Shown here: piece by piece, positions 22,864 through 62,540 of the stretch
How the letters are laid out: every line of letters starts with the position of its first letter
Numbering within the stretch: the stretch's first letter is position 1
Origin: a virus
Taxonomy: Duplodnaviria; Heunggongvirae; Uroviricota; Caudoviricetes
Direction: 5' to 3' (one strand)
IMG/VR virus record: IMGVR_UViG_3300045988_149282
Location: 32,001-96,000 of that record
DNA: 64,000 nucleotides
Translations under genes and position numbers: made by a program
Notes under the pieces: model-generated
What the model was told of the DNA's origin: nothing
What the model saw: only the letters and a program-made list of their open reading frames with translations
The model's database searches: none

Positions 22864-22938
22864 GATGGTGTAGCTCAGCGGTAGAGCAGTTGGCTGTTAA
22901 CCAACTGGTCGGTGGTTCGAATCCACCCACCATCGCCA
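22864..22938 (+). tRNA. tRNA-Asn (anticodon GTT)
   Basis: Manual cloverleaf: acceptor GATGGTG/CACCATC, D-arm GCTC-AGCGGTA-GAGC, anticodon loop CTGTTAA, T-arm GGTGG-TTCGAAT-CCACC, encoded CCA. Confidence 0.85.
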
Positions 22939-22943
22939 ATTTA

Positions 22944-23030
22944 GGGGAGTTAGTCCGTAGAGGTAGCGGTGTAGACTGTAAATCTACTGTCATGGCGACT
23001 CGGGTGGTTCGACTCCATCACTCCCCACCA
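22944..23030 (+). tRNA. tRNA-Tyr (anticodon GTA), long variable arm
   Basis: Acceptor GGGGAGT/ACTCCCC, anticodon stem-loop GTAGA-CTGTAAA-TCTAC, long variable arm, T-loop TTCGACT, encoded CCA. Confidence 0.8.
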
Positions 23031-23034
23031 AATT

Positions 23035-23110
23035 GCCGGTTTAGCTCAGTTGGTAGAGCGCCTGCCTTGTAAGCAGGATGTCAGCGGTTCGAGTCCGTTA
23101 ACCGGCACCA
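23035..23110 (+). tRNA. tRNA-Thr (anticodon TGT)
   Basis: Acceptor GCCGGTT/AACCGGC, D-arm GCTC-AGTTGGTA-GAGC, anticodon loop CTTGTAA, T-loop TTCGAGT, encoded CCA. Confidence 0.8.
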
Positions 23111-23404
23111 ACATAATATTGAGAACATTGGCGTAACGGGTTCATATCCCAATTTATGAATATAATGTTGCGTTGCAGCGTGACAACCAGTGTTCTCAAC
23201 ATTGTGGTGAATGCACAGGCTGATGTGCGACGTAGAAGCAAGCGGATGAACTGCCTGAAGGCCGCTAACGTAGGCAATGCCGGAGATCAGCACCGGCCAT
23301 CACAATTTGGCTCTCTTGCAACAGCATAACGCTGAAATACGTCCAACCTGGTGCGGTCTGATCACCCGCCGTTAGCTCCACGAAACGGAGCACACAACAC
23401 AATT

Positions 23405-23491
23405 GGAGAGTAGGGAGCATGGTGCTCAAGCGGTCTTGAAAACCGTCCCATTGTGCAAACGATGATGGTTCGATTCCATTACTCTCCGCCA
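23405..23491 (+). tRNA. tRNA-Ser (anticodon TGA), long variable arm
   Basis: Acceptor GGAGAGT/ACTCTCC, anticodon stem-loop GCGGT-CTTGAAA-ACCGT, long variable arm, T-arm GATGG-TTCGATT-CCATT, encoded CCA. Confidence 0.7.
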
Positions 23492-32000: not shown

Positions 32001-32002
32001 TC

Positions 32003-59484: not shown

Positions 59485-59504
59485 ATAGGTATATACTTAC
59501 CTAT
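59485..59504. promoter_or_regulatory. ATAGGTATATACTTACCTAT palindromic motif upstream of the methyltransferase gene
   Basis: Perfect 7-bp arms ATAGGTA/TACCTAT; class-2 family. Confidence 0.45.
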
Positions 59505-59515
59505 CGAGAAAGAAG

Positions 59516-60109
59516 ATGATTGCAGCCGAAAAAATCAAACAGCGAAAGCGCGACAACTCTCTTCGTGACCTCTGGAGAACACCTGACTGGCTGTTTTCTG
59601 CCATTCAACGTTATCTTGGAGTGACATTTGATGTTGACGTTGCCTGCAACAAGGACAATGCAAAGCTGCCTAATTTCATAGGCGTTGAGCGTGATGCTTT
59701 GAAATCTGAATGGGGACAGCCAGGTACAATTGCCTTCCTCAATCCACCCTACTCCAAAATCTACCCCTGGATTGATGCGGCTATACGTGAGCAGGCTCGC
59801 GGAGTTACAACAGTGATGCTAATTCCTCAATCCCTCGATACAAAGTGGTATGAGCGTGCAACAGAGTGTGCGAATGAGACGATTATTCTGTCTGGTGGCC
59901 GCGTAGCGTTTGTCGAGCCTGACGTAAATCTGGGTCAGGTAGAAGTAAACATCAACCCAGGTGGCAGTATGCTCGTTGTTTTTCGAGGATTCTGTCAGGA
60001 CGCTGGGCACTCTATAAGCAAGATCCCTTTGGACGTCATGAAAAGTCTGGGAGGGTATGATCCTGCGAATGTGATCAGGAAAAAAAGACCATCAAAGAAG
60101 GCTGCTTAG
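59516..60109 (+). CDS. DNA N6-adenine methyltransferase (phage Dam-like)
   Basis: Catalytic NPPY motif (AFLNPPYS); N-terminal RTPDWLFSAI segment; 197 aa. Confidence 0.75.
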   Translation: MIAAEKIKQRKRDNSLRDLWRTPDWLFSAIQRYLGVTFDVDVACNKDNAKLPNFIGVERDALKSEWGQPGTIAFLNPPYSKIYPWIDAAIREQARGVTTVMLIPQSLDTKWYERATECANETIILSGGRVAFVEPDVNLGQVEVNINPGGSMLVVFRGFCQDAGHSISKIPLDVMKSLGGYDPANVIRKKRPSKKAA

Positions 60110-60131
60110 TTTGTTCTGGTGTCTGTAATTA

Positions 60132-60188
60132 GCCTGCTTCTGTATATATAAATAACTACATATTAATTATTAATATACGGAAGAAGGC
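60132..60188. repeat. 55-bp composite palindromic element, copy 2 (GCCTGCTTCTGTATATAT ... ATATACGGAAGAAGGC)
   Basis: Near-identical to the copy at 15001-15055; downstream of the methyltransferase gene. Confidence 0.6.
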
Positions 60189-60294
60189 TGTTTTGTATCA
60201 GAGACTCCAGACCTGAACATCACTACAGAATCCACTAGAACCCCTTCCCAGACGCTTTAAAATCGATTTTATGAACCACTTTAAGGAAACCAAC

Positions 60295-60525
60295 ATGTCA
60301 TACCCGACTAATGTCGTTGCGCTCGTAGAGAGCGATTTTCTGGCCCAGGCTCGTGAAATGATGAAAGATCGTGAGCAGGCTTTCAACTTGTACGAATGGG
60401 CAATTAAGTGCTTGCATCTTGGCGAGCATCGCGAACTTGTTGAACAGCTTTTAGGTGAGTTGATCAATGAGGTGTTTGCCTTGAATGTTCAACTACATGG
60501 TAGAGAAAATAATCAATCACAATGA
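60295..60525 (+). CDS. Hypothetical small protein (76 aa)
   Basis: AAGGAAACC ribosome-binding site then ATG 60295 (ORF-track start 60271 lies upstream in frame). Confidence 0.45.
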   Translation: MSYPTNVVALVESDFLAQAREMMKDREQAFNLYEWAIKCLHLGEHRELVEQLLGELINEVFALNVQLHGRENNQSQ

Positions 60526-60539
60526 TAGATAAGTACAAA

Positions 60540-61045
60540 CTATTCATAAAGTGAATTGTAAGTGCTAAGATCTGATAGTTTCCAGTCGTAGACTGGAGAC
60601 TCGACCTGATGGGTGGGGGTAAGCGTCACTGGCGTCAGGTTTAAAAAAGCTCACTACCAGCGTAGAACTGGTGCCGTTTAGGTGTCGGGGAAGGGGGAAC
60701 CAAAGTGAGCAGAGACAAGGGTCACTTTATGATTGTCGAGTCTGGGGTGTTTCGAGAGGTTGAATCCAGTACTCCCCTTCATAAAGTGTGGGAAGATCTC
60801 GGTTCTGGGGTGCTGTCATCCATAACTTCCCAAGTCTAAGCTGGCAGTAGACTTAGACCATAACTTTTCAGGTTATGAAACGACCAGGTTGGTGAGAGAT
60901 TTTTATACTCACCTCCCTGGGAGAGTATTACCTGAAAAGACAACCTCTCACTTCGTTCGAGGTGAACTTCACTCACTTCGTTCGTTCAGTTCAGGTTTAT
61001 AAAAACCTGTTCTGGGAAGTAATTTGTTTATTTTAATAATTATTA
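60540..61045. other. About 500-bp non-coding region with multiple hairpins and direct repeats; candidate structured RNA, packaging site or lytic origin
   Basis: No credible ORF; hairpins CCAGTC-gtaga-GACTGG and CAGGTTT-ataaa-AACCTG; direct repeat CTCACTTCGTTCG twice; inverted GTCTAAG/CTTAGAC. Confidence 0.4.
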
Positions 61046-61070
61046 ACACGCACGCGTGTGCGCACGCGCG
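61046..61070. repeat. 25-nt perfect alternating purine-pyrimidine tract (ACACGCACGCGTGTGCGCACGCGCG)
   Basis: Read directly; contains the CACGCGTG palindrome; GC-rich in an otherwise AT-rich promoter region before the RNase H gene. Confidence 0.7.
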
Positions 61071-61108
61071 AGGAAAAAATCGGCGCGGCGCTTGATTCAG
61101 GAGTTTAT

Positions 61109-61699
61109 ATGACGACGAAGACACCAGCCCGATCGCAAGCAAAAACTCGCAAAAAAGCCAAAAACAAAAATTCTCCCCGCACCAATCCCACAACGCCTGT
61201 CGTAGAGTTCAATCCCCAGCTCAAAACCGTGAAAATCTTTAGTGATGGCTCTTGCCTTAAAAATCCGGGTGGCCCGGGCGGTTACGGTATCGTTCTCCAG
61301 TATCGTGGTGAGGAACGCGAATTCTCAGATGGTTTTCATAGCACCACCAATAACCGCATGGAGATGATGGGGGCACTTATCGGGCTGGAGCGTTTGAAAT
61401 ATCCATGCAACGTTATTTTGCACTCTGATAGCCAGTATCTGAAAAACGGCATGACACAGTGGATGAAATGGTGGAAACGCAATGGATGGATGACTTCTGA
61501 CAAAAAACCGGTAAAGAATGTTGATCTGTGGAAGCGTCTGGATGAGGCCGCAAGTCGACATAATGTTCGCTGGAAGTGGGTTAAAGGTCACGCCGGGCAT
61601 CGTGAAAATGAAATATGTGATCGACTCGCGAAGATCGCAGCTTTTTCAGCAGCAGATATGCCTCACAAGAAAGATATTGGTTTTGTTTATAACAAATAG
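61109..61699 (+). CDS. rnhA: Ribonuclease HI with basic N-terminal extension
   Basis: CAGGAG ribosome-binding site then ATG 61109; motifs [39 protein letters not shown]. Confidence 0.8.
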
Positions 61700-61718
61700 T
61701 AAGTAAGTGTTTACCTAT
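61696..61718. promoter_or_regulatory. ATAGTAAGTAAGTGTTTACCTAT palindromic motif (class-2 family)
   Basis: Immediately after the RNase H stop. Confidence 0.4.
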
Positions 61719-61847
61719 CATTTCAAATCATGTATCTTATCGGCGTCAGGATGACAATGTGTTGGTAAGACACAGTTCCAGGATGGAACGAGAAAGGCGG
61801 CTGGCAATCGCCAGCCGCAACTCTTTCTGACACTGGATGGAGTCCAC

Positions 61848-62342
61848 ATGGCACGTCAAACCTATTTCACTTCTGTAACTAAACGTCCTCGTTCTTTACG
61901 TCAAATTTTGGCCGAATTATTTAGCGGTCGTGTTATGTCACGTCTTGATGAACTAGAGACTACCGTTCGGTTGCTGAATGAACGTTTAGATAATCAAGCG
62001 TCAGTTGTTGCGAACGTGGGGGCGATTGTTGCCTCTGGTTCTTCACGCGAAGCGAAAAATGCACGGCCTTTAGTGAAGGAGAAAAACAACAAGGACAGTT
62101 CGAATGGAAAATTTTCAAAGAAAGAGGCTGAAACCAATGGCCTACGTTCTCATTATAGTTTCACTGGCGACGGTAGCCGTTCCAGCCGGTCAGAGCCTTT
62201 TGATGCCGGATTCATCCATCACCACACCTTCGTCGACGACAATTACCACCACTCCAGTGGAGCGTCCTGTCACTCTGGATGGGATGGCGGTGGATGCGAT
62301 ACCTCAACTTCATCCAGTTACTCAGGATCATGCTGTGACTAA
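61848..62342 (+). CDS. Hypothetical protein; 3' part may be a non-genic frame extension
   Basis: TGGAG ribosome-binding site then ATG 61848; C-terminal third is low-complexity and overlaps a membrane-protein frame. Confidence 0.4.
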   Translation: MARQTYFTSVTKRPRSLRQILAELFSGRVMSRLDELETTVRLLNERLDNQASVVANVGAIVASGSSREAKNARPLVKEKNNKDSSNGKFSKKEAETNGLRSHYSFTGDGSRSSRSEPFDAGFIHHHTFVDDNYHHSSGASCHSGWDGGGCDTSTSSSYSGSCCD

Positions 62343-62355
62343 GGCGGTTGTATGA
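62137..62355 (+). CDS. Small membrane protein (about 72 aa)
   Basis: AGAGG ribosome-binding site then ATG 62137; N-terminal transmembrane helix; alternative frame to the 3' part of the previous ORF. Confidence 0.4.
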   Translation: MAYVLIIVSLATVAVPAGQSLLMPDSSITTPSSTTITTTPVERPVTLDGMAVDAIPQLHPVTQDHAVTKAVV

Positions 62356-62540
62356 ACTGGTTTTCAAATCACTTTGGAAAAATTTGGCTGGCAATTCTTG
62401 CCCTCATGGCCGCCGGTTGGGTATCGAACATTATAAAACTTGTTTGCTCTGGCGATCTCCAGTTTCAGGCTGGCATGACCTTGGCTCGTGTAGTTGGGAT
62501 TTTTATTTTTCCAGTCGGTTCGGTACTTGGTTATTTCTGA
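62352..62540 (+). CDS. Small membrane protein (62 aa, two transmembrane helices)
   Basis: ATG overlaps upstream stop; two hydrophobic helices. Confidence 0.5.
   Translation: MNWFSNHFGKIWLAILALMAAGWVSNIIKLVCSGDLQFQAGMTLARVVGIFIFPVGSVLGYF

Follow-up and report, generated by a model that had tools for sequence, protein, structure and literature searches.

The question raised by this locus is what an Escherichia coli phage-plasmid of the SSU5/pHCM2 type does with a long gap among its replication genes. The DNA analysed, here called the window, is a stretch of 64,000 nucleotides (nt) covering positions 32,001 to 96,000 of IMG/VR record IMGVR_UViG_3300045988_149282. The gap runs from the stop codon of a small open reading frame (ORF) at 60525 to the ATG of an RNase HI gene at 61109, and the locus is 99.6% identical to Escherichia phage CMS-2020a. 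An earlier note on this DNA had described the region as non-coding and structured and had offered a structured non-coding RNA, a packaging-recognition site or a lytic origin as candidate functions. The first and third of these are supported and apparently are one thing, while nothing supports a packaging site. The reading preferred here, held at somewhat less than even confidence, is that the region is one conserved cis-acting module and probably a lytic origin of SSU5/pHCM2-type phage-plasmids that is activated by transcription or an R-loop. The emphasis differs from that of the earlier note, since the core of the element is the conserved block 60577-61023 and since the promoter, the very high conservation and the placement of a repeat in hairpin loops had been missed.

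All ORFs in the gap are at most 46 amino acids (aa) long, and no open frame is kept among relatives; the candidates of 30 to 46 aa are all broken by frameshift, missing start or stops. The four longest lost their frame or start, or gained stops, in the Klebsiella, Newport and Cronobacter lineages, and the 44-aa ORF annotated in phage Cyrano is among the non-conserved ones. The view that no credible ORF is present therefore stands. Neither a conserved coding frame nor an absence of conservation was found, which favours a functional non-coding element. In a multiple alignment of Salmonella, Klebsiella, Enterobacter and Cronobacter relatives, identity across 60620-61020 was 87-96%, compared with 65-80% in the flanking genes, indicating that purifying selection acts on the non-coding block. 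The conserved unit starts with a promoter at 60543-60571, the most conserved part reaching to 61022. In lineages other than the E. coli clade there is a sharp homology boundary at 60600, and the promoter-proximal 75 nt of the E. coli clade are non-homologous to those of the other lineages.

By BLAST, the element was found in 12 phage records and in 687 PLSDB plasmids of the SSU5/pHCM2 family, the latter from Klebsiella (310), Escherichia (195), Enterobacter (88), Salmonella (49), Citrobacter (24) and Cronobacter (10). Nearly all of these plasmids (677 of 687) are typed as non-mobilizable. One fetched locus (such loci are designated L with a number), the Logan SRR8137545 contig L238, was left out, as it is a copy of the locus with nearly all C changed to T, presumably from bisulfite-treated reads; the same converted assembly also gives a spurious 'protein' cluster, P0026.

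The several hairpins mentioned in the earlier note understate the folding of the region. The predicted folding energy of 60590-61110 was -185 kcal/mol for the plus strand (z = -6.4 versus shuffles) and -155 kcal/mol for the minus strand (z = -4.5). Covariation was assessed in an alignment (A2) of 58 distinct family members, on which RNAalifold gave 104 pairs, 34 of them with compensatory double changes. In a 101-pair version of the fold, 99.6% of 5852 pair cells were canonical and 34 pairs were compensated, whereas controls with slid partners were 31-49% paired with 3-6 compensated pairs. None of 500 shuffles matched the observed pairing, compensated-pair count or covariation score. G-U accounted for 672 of the 5852 cells, with 10 pairs being G-U in most sequences, and the complementary strand was only 88.1% canonical; the G-U pairs assign the fold to the plus strand. 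The double changes came mostly from the ~68%-identical Cronobacter clade (L004, L014, L027 and L085). A third clade, L237, which was reached via the upstream protein, showed independent compensating events, including paired deletions and insertions (GCUCAC/GUGAGC to GCUAC/GUAGC and CCAGG/CCUGG to CCAAGG/CCUUGG).

The structured 5' and central domains occupy 60600-60943 of the plus strand. Their covariation-backed helices pair 60604-60618 with 60624-60640, 60650-60654 with 60705-60709, 60723-60732 with 60779-60788, 60789-60795 with 60826-60832, 60808-60812 with 60817-60821, 60834-60843 with 60848-60858, 60859-60865 with 60871-60877 and 60884-60896 with 60908-60920. The 5' part is G-rich (GATGGGTGGGGG, GGGGAAGGGGG), with a GC skew of +0.32 to +0.36 across 60550-60750. 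Two pseudoknot or long-range helices, CUCGAC/GUCGAG and CUUUUCAGG/CCUGAAAAG, fit the data, being 91.7% and 93.9% paired, although they depend on the alignment. The scan against RNA families that the earlier note had suggested was run with cmscan and Rfam 15 on 59500-62500 (E <= 1), and no family matched the element; the three matches returned were far under their gathering thresholds (21 bits versus 56, 18 versus 80 and 16 versus 71), and none lay within 60577-61023. A search with the 5' domain (nhmmer), which covered the remaining window and every other locus fetched, found no match, and the RNA domain is probably restricted to the SSU5 family. A scan of genome contigs with the G-rich 5' pattern GATGGGTGGNGG...CTGGC gave only chance matches in GC-rich genomes (L091-L168).

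The promoter at 60543-60571 (plus strand) is of the sigma-70 type, with a -35 element TTCATA at 60543-60548, a 17-nt spacer and an extended -10 element TGcTAAGAT at 60563-60571. It was not listed by a consensus scanner because its -35 element is weak. Its geometry is kept in five aligned lineages, in which the -35 element is TTTACn, TTTAAA or TTCATA, the -10 element TAnnAT mostly follows TGn and the 17-nt spacer differs in sequence; a sixth lineage, L237, retains TGtTAACAT. Transcription is predicted to start near 60577-60579. A 5' terminal hairpin at 60579-60599 of the plus strand (TTCCAGTCGTAGACTGGAG in the window) begins ~7 nt downstream of the -10 element, and its sequence is new in every clade with the pairing kept, five of its six pairs being compensated (CG/UA/AU, GC/AU and others across lineages). 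A hairpin in this position is what the start of a stable transcript usually looks like. Together, the covariation and the conserved promoter support the region as a plus-strand structured RNA.

Two further observations concern the promoter region. In relatives, a perfect palindrome, GGTAAGTACTTACC, lies just 5' of the -35 element (L001:3108-3125 and equivalents, columns 12-35 of alignment A1) and is a candidate operator; it is degenerate in the E. coli clade of the window (60529-60541). Parts of the promoter are also nearly duplicated inside the RNA, namely, 60543-60553 at 60778-60788 (TTCATAAAGTG in the -35 region and TTCATAAAGTG in the RNA) and 60562-60573 at 60788-60799 (GTGCTAAGATCT in the -10 region and GTGGGAAGATCT in the RNA). 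These near-duplicates may be a trace of the acquisition of its promoter by the E. coli clade.

The 13-mer CTCACTTCGTTCG, which the earlier note had reported as twice repeated, is present in the window as just two exact copies, one at 60947 and the other at 60972. The placement of the copies in hairpin loops had gone unrecognized. Hairpin 1 (60944-60962, plus strand), CCTC[TCACTTCGTTC]GAGG, has an 11-nt loop holding the first copy and is invariant in the 58 family members. Hairpin 2 (60963-60993, plus strand), TGAACT[...CTCACTTCGTTCG...]AGTTCA, has the second copy in its loop, and three of its six stem pairs are compensated in the Cronobacter clade; in L237 the loop holds TTCGCTTCGCTCA instead of the second copy. 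The variable hairpin 3 (GGTTT-ATAA-AAACC) and the invariant TTCTGGGAAGTAA (61010-61022) that follows it, together 60994-61022 of the plus strand, end the highly conserved block. The stem of hairpin 3 differs but is complementary in the Csak, Newport and Cronobacter lineages, and TTCTGGG is unchanged in all clades. An alternative exists for 60944-60993, in which a central hairpin, CGAGGTGA/TCACTTCG, is the minimum-free-energy form of the isolated segment and the 3' arm of hairpin 1 pairs with the second repeat copy. The two-hairpin form is the one backed by covariation, and the alternative folds may constitute a conformational switch. In the closest complete genome, the other 43.8 kb contain neither the loop motif nor any alternating tract of at least 16 nt; as the motif is absent from the rest of the window too, the site is unique in the ~108-kb genome.

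The conserved block is followed by an AT-rich spacer at 61023-61045 (TTTGTTTATTTTAATAATTATTA), a candidate DNA-unwinding element, which is AT-rich in every relative, variable in sequence and ~20-45 nt long, the longest being that of L237. Next comes a perfect 25-nt alternating purine/pyrimidine tract at 61046-61070 (ACACGCACGCGTGTGCGCACGCGCG), which leads into the conserved CGCGCGAGGAAAAAATCGG, the whole spanning 61046-61083. The tract is the longest of its kind in the window and the only alternating run of at least 14 nt in the 64 kb; the longest runs of 200 block shuffles had a mean of 16.4 nt and a maximum of 22. In relatives its length ranges from 17 to 27 nt; all three clades retain the 3' end CGCGCGAGG/A-run, and the tract itself is still present where RNase H is replaced by other genes (L008 and L011). 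The spacer and tract (61023-61083) are more variable in length and sequence, yet they are kept as features in the three clades examined. The earlier note had headlined the tract for its tendency toward Z-DNA or cruciform conformations; the tract is real but is the part least conserved in sequence. A GC-rich bulged hairpin, GCGCACGCGCG...CGGCGCGGCGC (61058-61092, plus strand), overlaps the tract and is predicted for both RNA and DNA, just 5' of the ribosome-binding site for RNase H. Shuffled sequences fold as well as it does (z -1.3 to -1.9), and it is not a canonical terminator because no T-run follows.

The conserved hairpin also occurs in unrelated phages. A scan of IMG/VR returned the SSU5 family and one unrelated phage, L029, in which the motif lies within the linker of a gene of the PHROG 'replication initiation protein' annotation, after CAGTGAG repeats and an AT-rich run, and in which a second copy on the opposite strand has a compensated stem (CAACTC/GAGTTG). 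When the SSU5-type closing pair was excluded in a second scan, 62 IMG/VR stretches with the hairpin CTC[TCACTNCGTTC]GAG were found. Their loop and CTC/GAG pairs are constant, and the outer stems covary (TAACA/TGTTA, AAATCT/AGATTT, TATTAACT/AGTTAATA, CCACG/CGTG, GCCCT/AGGG and TAGCA/TGCT). Nine long ORFs that span the motif were tested, and all nine belong to PHROG families of initiators, O-like proteins or DnaD-like loaders, several families being represented; a DnaB-like helicase gene comes next after one of the spanning ORFs. In these proteins the motif falls mid-sequence and is read in two frames (LT[ST]FE or SHSVR), indicating that the nucleotides, not the protein, are conserved. Direct repeats of at least 8 nt, many of them of 13-14 nt and iteron-like, are present upstream in 28 of 46 distinct sites versus 29% in the background. 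The hairpin is followed by GCGCGC and an A-run in 4 of the 46 unrelated sites (background, 2.5%), an arrangement that resembles the ...GCGCACGCGCGAGGAAAAAATCGG of the window.

T4-like phages carry the hairpin as well, once per genome in the RB43/RB16 type and in 1-4 copies in the Aeromonas CC2 type. In the RB43 and CC2 types it stands in AT-rich intergenic DNA, with a TATAAT box ~40 nt upstream. Beside the TCACTNCGTTC hairpin of these phages there is a second motif, which is TTCGCTTCGCTCA or the complement of it (L232:2350-2400 and 2521-2535; L234:1771-1785) and also occurs in the loop of hairpin 2 in the SSU5-like clade L237 (2650-2680). Metagenomic hairpin loci L172 and L176 had no cultured-phage match by BLAST. 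A motif match in Salmonella phage Melville was taken as chance, being partial and within coding sequence, and the PeSL cassettes of T4-type phages were rejected as generic terminator/promoter units that do not represent the hairpin motif. Separately, the hairpin core CTCTCACTTCGTTCGAG was observed in repeated intergenic cassettes of one metagenomic phage type (L187, reverse strand, at 989, 2027, 2557 and 3125; L171 at 2570 and 5270). Each of these cassettes combines the motif with a UUCG hairpin rich in GC, which precedes it, and with runs of (TAAC)n stop codons and a ribosome-binding site, which come after it, a context unlike an origin.

The element lies among genes for ribonucleotide reductase, thymidylate synthase (ThyA), dihydrofolate reductase, a Pol III epsilon-like exonuclease, Dam and RNase HI, and the window encodes a DnaB-like helicase, a primase, a ligase, a 1172-aa polymerase, an SSB-like protein, an exonuclease and a UvsX-like recombinase. 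The proteins of the window include no recognised initiator of the O-like or DnaD-like kind, and the gene for a plasmid RepB-type initiator is ~17.5 kb from the element. The G-rich 5' domain (GC skew +0.3) and the T4-like replisome support a lytic origin. The features of the site were compared with those of several kinds of origin. Around the hairpin only two-copy repeats are present, where an iteron origin needs at least three, and no ORF spans it. The hairpin loop and closing pairs are identical to those in the nine initiator-gene linkers, as expected of the palindrome or hairpin that flanks the AT-rich region of a lambdoid-type origin. As expected of a ColE1-type pre-primer, the conserved promoter is followed by ~100 covariation-backed pairs across ~440 nt, from which a transcript is predicted.

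RNA-dependent origins are already known from ColE1, T4 and non-RepA mycobacteriophage prophages. At the ColE1/pMB1 origin, the RNA II pre-primer is processed by RNase H and is transcribed from a host RNA polymerase promoter several hundred nt upstream of the start. The element is alike in its upstream promoter for the host polymerase, the long structured predicted transcript with G-rich segments, the RNase HI gene that is usually adjacent and the lack of an initiator protein or iterons at the site. It differs in that it has no sequence or Rfam similarity to the ColE1 system and no detected RNA I-type antisense promoter, and its replisome is phage encoded rather than based on Pol I; the element has a hairpin motif common to phage origins, and the R-loop here is proposed. 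The T4 origins oriF(uvsY) and oriG(34) are ~100 bp long; their unwinding element comes directly behind the promoter, and they lack a large folded RNA. The arrangement of promoter and downstream unwinding element, with a transcript proposed to serve as the leading-strand primer, is shared with them, and the genome of the window likewise has its own helicase, primase, SSB, RNase H and UvsX-like recombinase. The hairpin ~40 nt downstream of TATAAT boxes in RB43 and CC2 adds to this likeness, those sites not being mapped origins. In contrast to T4, ~440 nt of conserved structure separate the promoter from the unwinding element here.

The architecture of ori-lambda is recognizable in O-like or DnaD-like genes whose inter-domain linker holds CTC[TCACTNCGTTC]GAG directly after direct repeats and AT-rich DNA, and in some such phages a GC-alternating tract and A-run follow the hairpin as in the window. 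Unlike these sites, the window has neither an initiator ORF nor iterons around the hairpin, and the palindrome of lambda itself differs in sequence from the motif. In extrachromosomal mycobacteriophage prophages, a non-RepA replication region without an initiator protein has been proposed to be RNA based (Wetzel et al. 2020, PMC7157519), a precedent that supports the reading as a lytic origin. Those phages are phage-plasmids too, but their RNA origins serve plasmid-mode maintenance of the prophage in Actinobacteria, whereas the element would serve the lytic mode, the RepB-type replicon being elsewhere.

The lytic-origin reading suggests the following course of events. The host sigma-70 promoter at 60543-60571 would drive a plus-strand RNA of ~440 nt with ~100 base pairs, whose 3' end would carry two hairpins presenting (C)TCACTTCGTTC(G), followed by the AT-rich stretch and the GC-alternating tract ending in CGCGCGAGGAAAAAA. 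Transcription through the module would leave an RNA-DNA hybrid that persists at the AT-rich element, in the manner of T4 oriF/oriG or ColE1. The RNA could then be trimmed into a primer for the phage polymerase by RNase HI, usually from the next-door gene and otherwise from the host. The displaced plus strand would fold into the conserved hairpins, which could give the phage DnaB-like helicase and primase a signal for entry or priming. The structured RNA would occupy the position that is held elsewhere by an iteron-bound protein initiator that opens the DNA. A broader and rather unlikely version of this proposal is that the structured RNA replaces the protein initiator at an otherwise lambdoid or T4-like origin, and that the TCACTNCGTTC hairpin is an undescribed loading or priming signal of many Proteobacteria phages that a common replication factor, probably of the host, reads as a single strand.

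Several observations weigh against an origin of this kind. The AT-rich element lies ~450 nt downstream of the promoter, where a T4-type origin would have its unwinding element within ~50 bp, and no nearer promoter was found. The cumulative GC skew across the window has no inflection at the site. The element persists where the downstream RNase H is missing. A terminator scan found no intrinsic terminator before 61797, so the 3' end of the RNA is undefined. A consensus promoter scan, which is a weak test, revealed no antisense regulator of the RNA I type over the 5' part; the sole minus-strand promoter-like site, from 60584 to 60555, is directed away from the element, and none lies within it. 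The sequence conservation of the 5' domain is extreme, beyond the apparent needs of a mere pre-primer. The hairpin motif is also not exclusive to initiator genes; the phage L187 has four copies, located in intergenic cassettes that are repeated, in L188 the motif has an integrase-like ORF on one side and a terminase-like ORF on the other, and in L191 and L221 its neighbours are tail genes. Given these sites, the general function of the motif may be other than that of an origin signal.

The main rival, possible although considerably less probable than the lytic origin, is a trans-acting structured RNA unrelated to initiation, such as a regulator of the switch between plasmid and lytic modes, a protein sponge or scaffold, or an anti-defence RNA, with the hairpin as a reused protein- or RNA-binding module. 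The conserved promoter, the stabilising 5' hairpin and the ~100 covariation-supported pairs would suit such an RNA equally, and the sequence conservation of the element, well above the needs of pairing, is of the kind seen in RNAs with tertiary folds or several partners. The occurrence of the hairpin in contexts unlike origins is also consistent with it, as is the constant position of the element beside a variable cargo or anti-defence region, with a Tad2-like gene, TerB or betT downstream in relatives. However, there is no Rfam match and no homolog of the 5' domain outside the SSU5 family, and the RNA has no defined 3' end or terminator. A trans-acting RNA would also leave unexplained both the hairpin beside iterons in nine of nine tested initiator genes and the conserved arrangement of AT-rich element and GC tract downstream.

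An improbable alternative is a signal at the DNA level only, in which the folded plus strand, as single-stranded DNA, is an initiation or priming site, comparable to the sso/ssi of plasmids or to the complementary-strand origins of G4/phiX, for rolling-circle or lagging-strand synthesis and no functional RNA is involved. RSF1010 ssiA/ssiB, G4-type ssi and the sso of rolling-circle plasmids are strand-specific hairpins whose loops are conserved and which provide a signal for priming or loading. The element resembles them in general form, and L029 bears two hairpin copies on opposite strands. Covariation does not distinguish RNA from single-stranded DNA, in which G-T wobbles are tolerated. The fold is strand specific, and the isolated hairpin segment folds significantly as plus-strand DNA (z -3.3). 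In L175, L191, L221 and L206 the hairpin is antisense to the flanking genes, which suggests a DNA-level role of the motif. Against this, a promoter of conserved geometry sits exactly at the 5' edge and is followed by a 5' hairpin typical of stable transcripts, the 10 pairs that are G-U in most sequences would be weak in DNA, and a single-stranded DNA fold of 440 nt would be much larger than known ssi signals.

Control of the RNase HI gene (rnh) by the element as its long structured 5' leader or attenuator is very improbable. The element and the gene are co-oriented, the stretch from the promoter to rnh has no terminator (the first is at 61797-61818), and the GC hairpin adjoins the rnh ribosome-binding site. 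However, the least conserved part is the leader-proximal one, and the element shows full conservation in relatives with something else in place of rnh, namely, an opposite-strand gene in L008, betT cargo in L011 and, in the Cronobacter clade loci L004 and L235, other ORFs and then a Tad2-like gene. As the element stays in place there, it is probably neither an rnh leader nor a degenerate gene, and RNase HI is not obligatory in cis. A cargo hotspot was observed directly 3' of the element in these relatives (L004:3529-3840, L235:3605-3916 and L011 from 2265 onward). It holds the Tad2-like (anti-Thoeris) gene in the Cronobacter clade, the betT choline transporter gene in an Enterobacter plasmid and a 414-aa opposite-strand ORF in a Salmonella Senftenberg plasmid, and the cargo breakpoints fall directly after ...AAAAATCGCC, inside the GC hairpin.

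A packaging-recognition (pac/cos) site, or a Z-DNA or cruciform recombination hotspot centred on the alternating tract, is the least probable reading: the uniqueness of the site, the cargo breakpoints just after ...AAAAATCGCC in the GC hairpin, the hairpin near a terminase-like ORF in L188 and the start of record PQ492289.1 (positions 1-846; Klebsiella phage vB_KpnS_p4727) ~300 nt upstream of the element, whether an arbitrary cut or a physical end, would fit it, but the element lies within the replication module away from the terminase genes and in mid-genome in other virion-derived records, and the tract varies in sequence and length (17-27 nt) with a fold no better than shuffles.

The genes that border the gap are of different kinds. 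The RNase HI gene (61109-61699, plus strand; Pfam RNase_H, 9.8e-45) has a basic N-terminal extension of ~40 aa, is the neighbour of the element in most family members and is a candidate processing enzyme for its RNA. The small upstream ORF (60295-60525, plus strand) encodes a 76-aa protein of PHROG 5343 with three helices and is syntenic with the element in every clade; its 29 clusters are all within SSU5-type replicons. The protein had no match in Pfam, and its AlphaFold model (predicted local distance difference test score of 79, three helices) had no PDB fold match at E < 2 and gave no functional clue. Between the Dam gene and this ORF lies an AT-rich imperfect long palindrome (60121-60187), with self-matches in reverse orientation in every relative compared, which could be a bidirectional terminator or another cis site. 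Downstream, at 61744-61789 of the plus strand, two adjoining hairpins with CAGGATG loops (UCAGGAUGA, CCAGGAUGG) resemble CsrA-binding sites, and the Rfam CsrB match there is partial and weak (E 0.16). A strong bidirectional terminator follows at 61797-61818, just 5' of an ORF at 61848-62342. Four tRNA genes (Asn, Tyr, Thr and Ser) are clustered at 22864-23491 of the window.

The literature searched contained no paper on an RNA or origin at this locus and no match to the sequence of the hairpin loop motif, and both the RNA and the motif are absent from Rfam. A predicted RNA of ~440 nt with ~100 covariation-backed pairs that is absent from Rfam stands independently of the lytic-origin reading. 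The 17-nt hairpin motif joins origin-like sites of lambdoid-, T4- and SSU5-type phages and is a lead for the annotation of origins and for finding the factor that reads it. Phage-plasmids of the SSU5/pHCM2 type are common in clinical Klebsiella, E. coli, Enterobacter and Salmonella, and some carry resistance genes; no description of their lytic-mode replication or of their escape from plasmid copy control was found in the literature searched. If the broader, rather unlikely version of the proposal is true, these phage-plasmids would switch from RepB-driven plasmid replication to an RNA-organised lytic origin. A defined candidate origin with a promoter, a predicted RNA and a conserved hairpin makes the question of their lytic replication directly testable.

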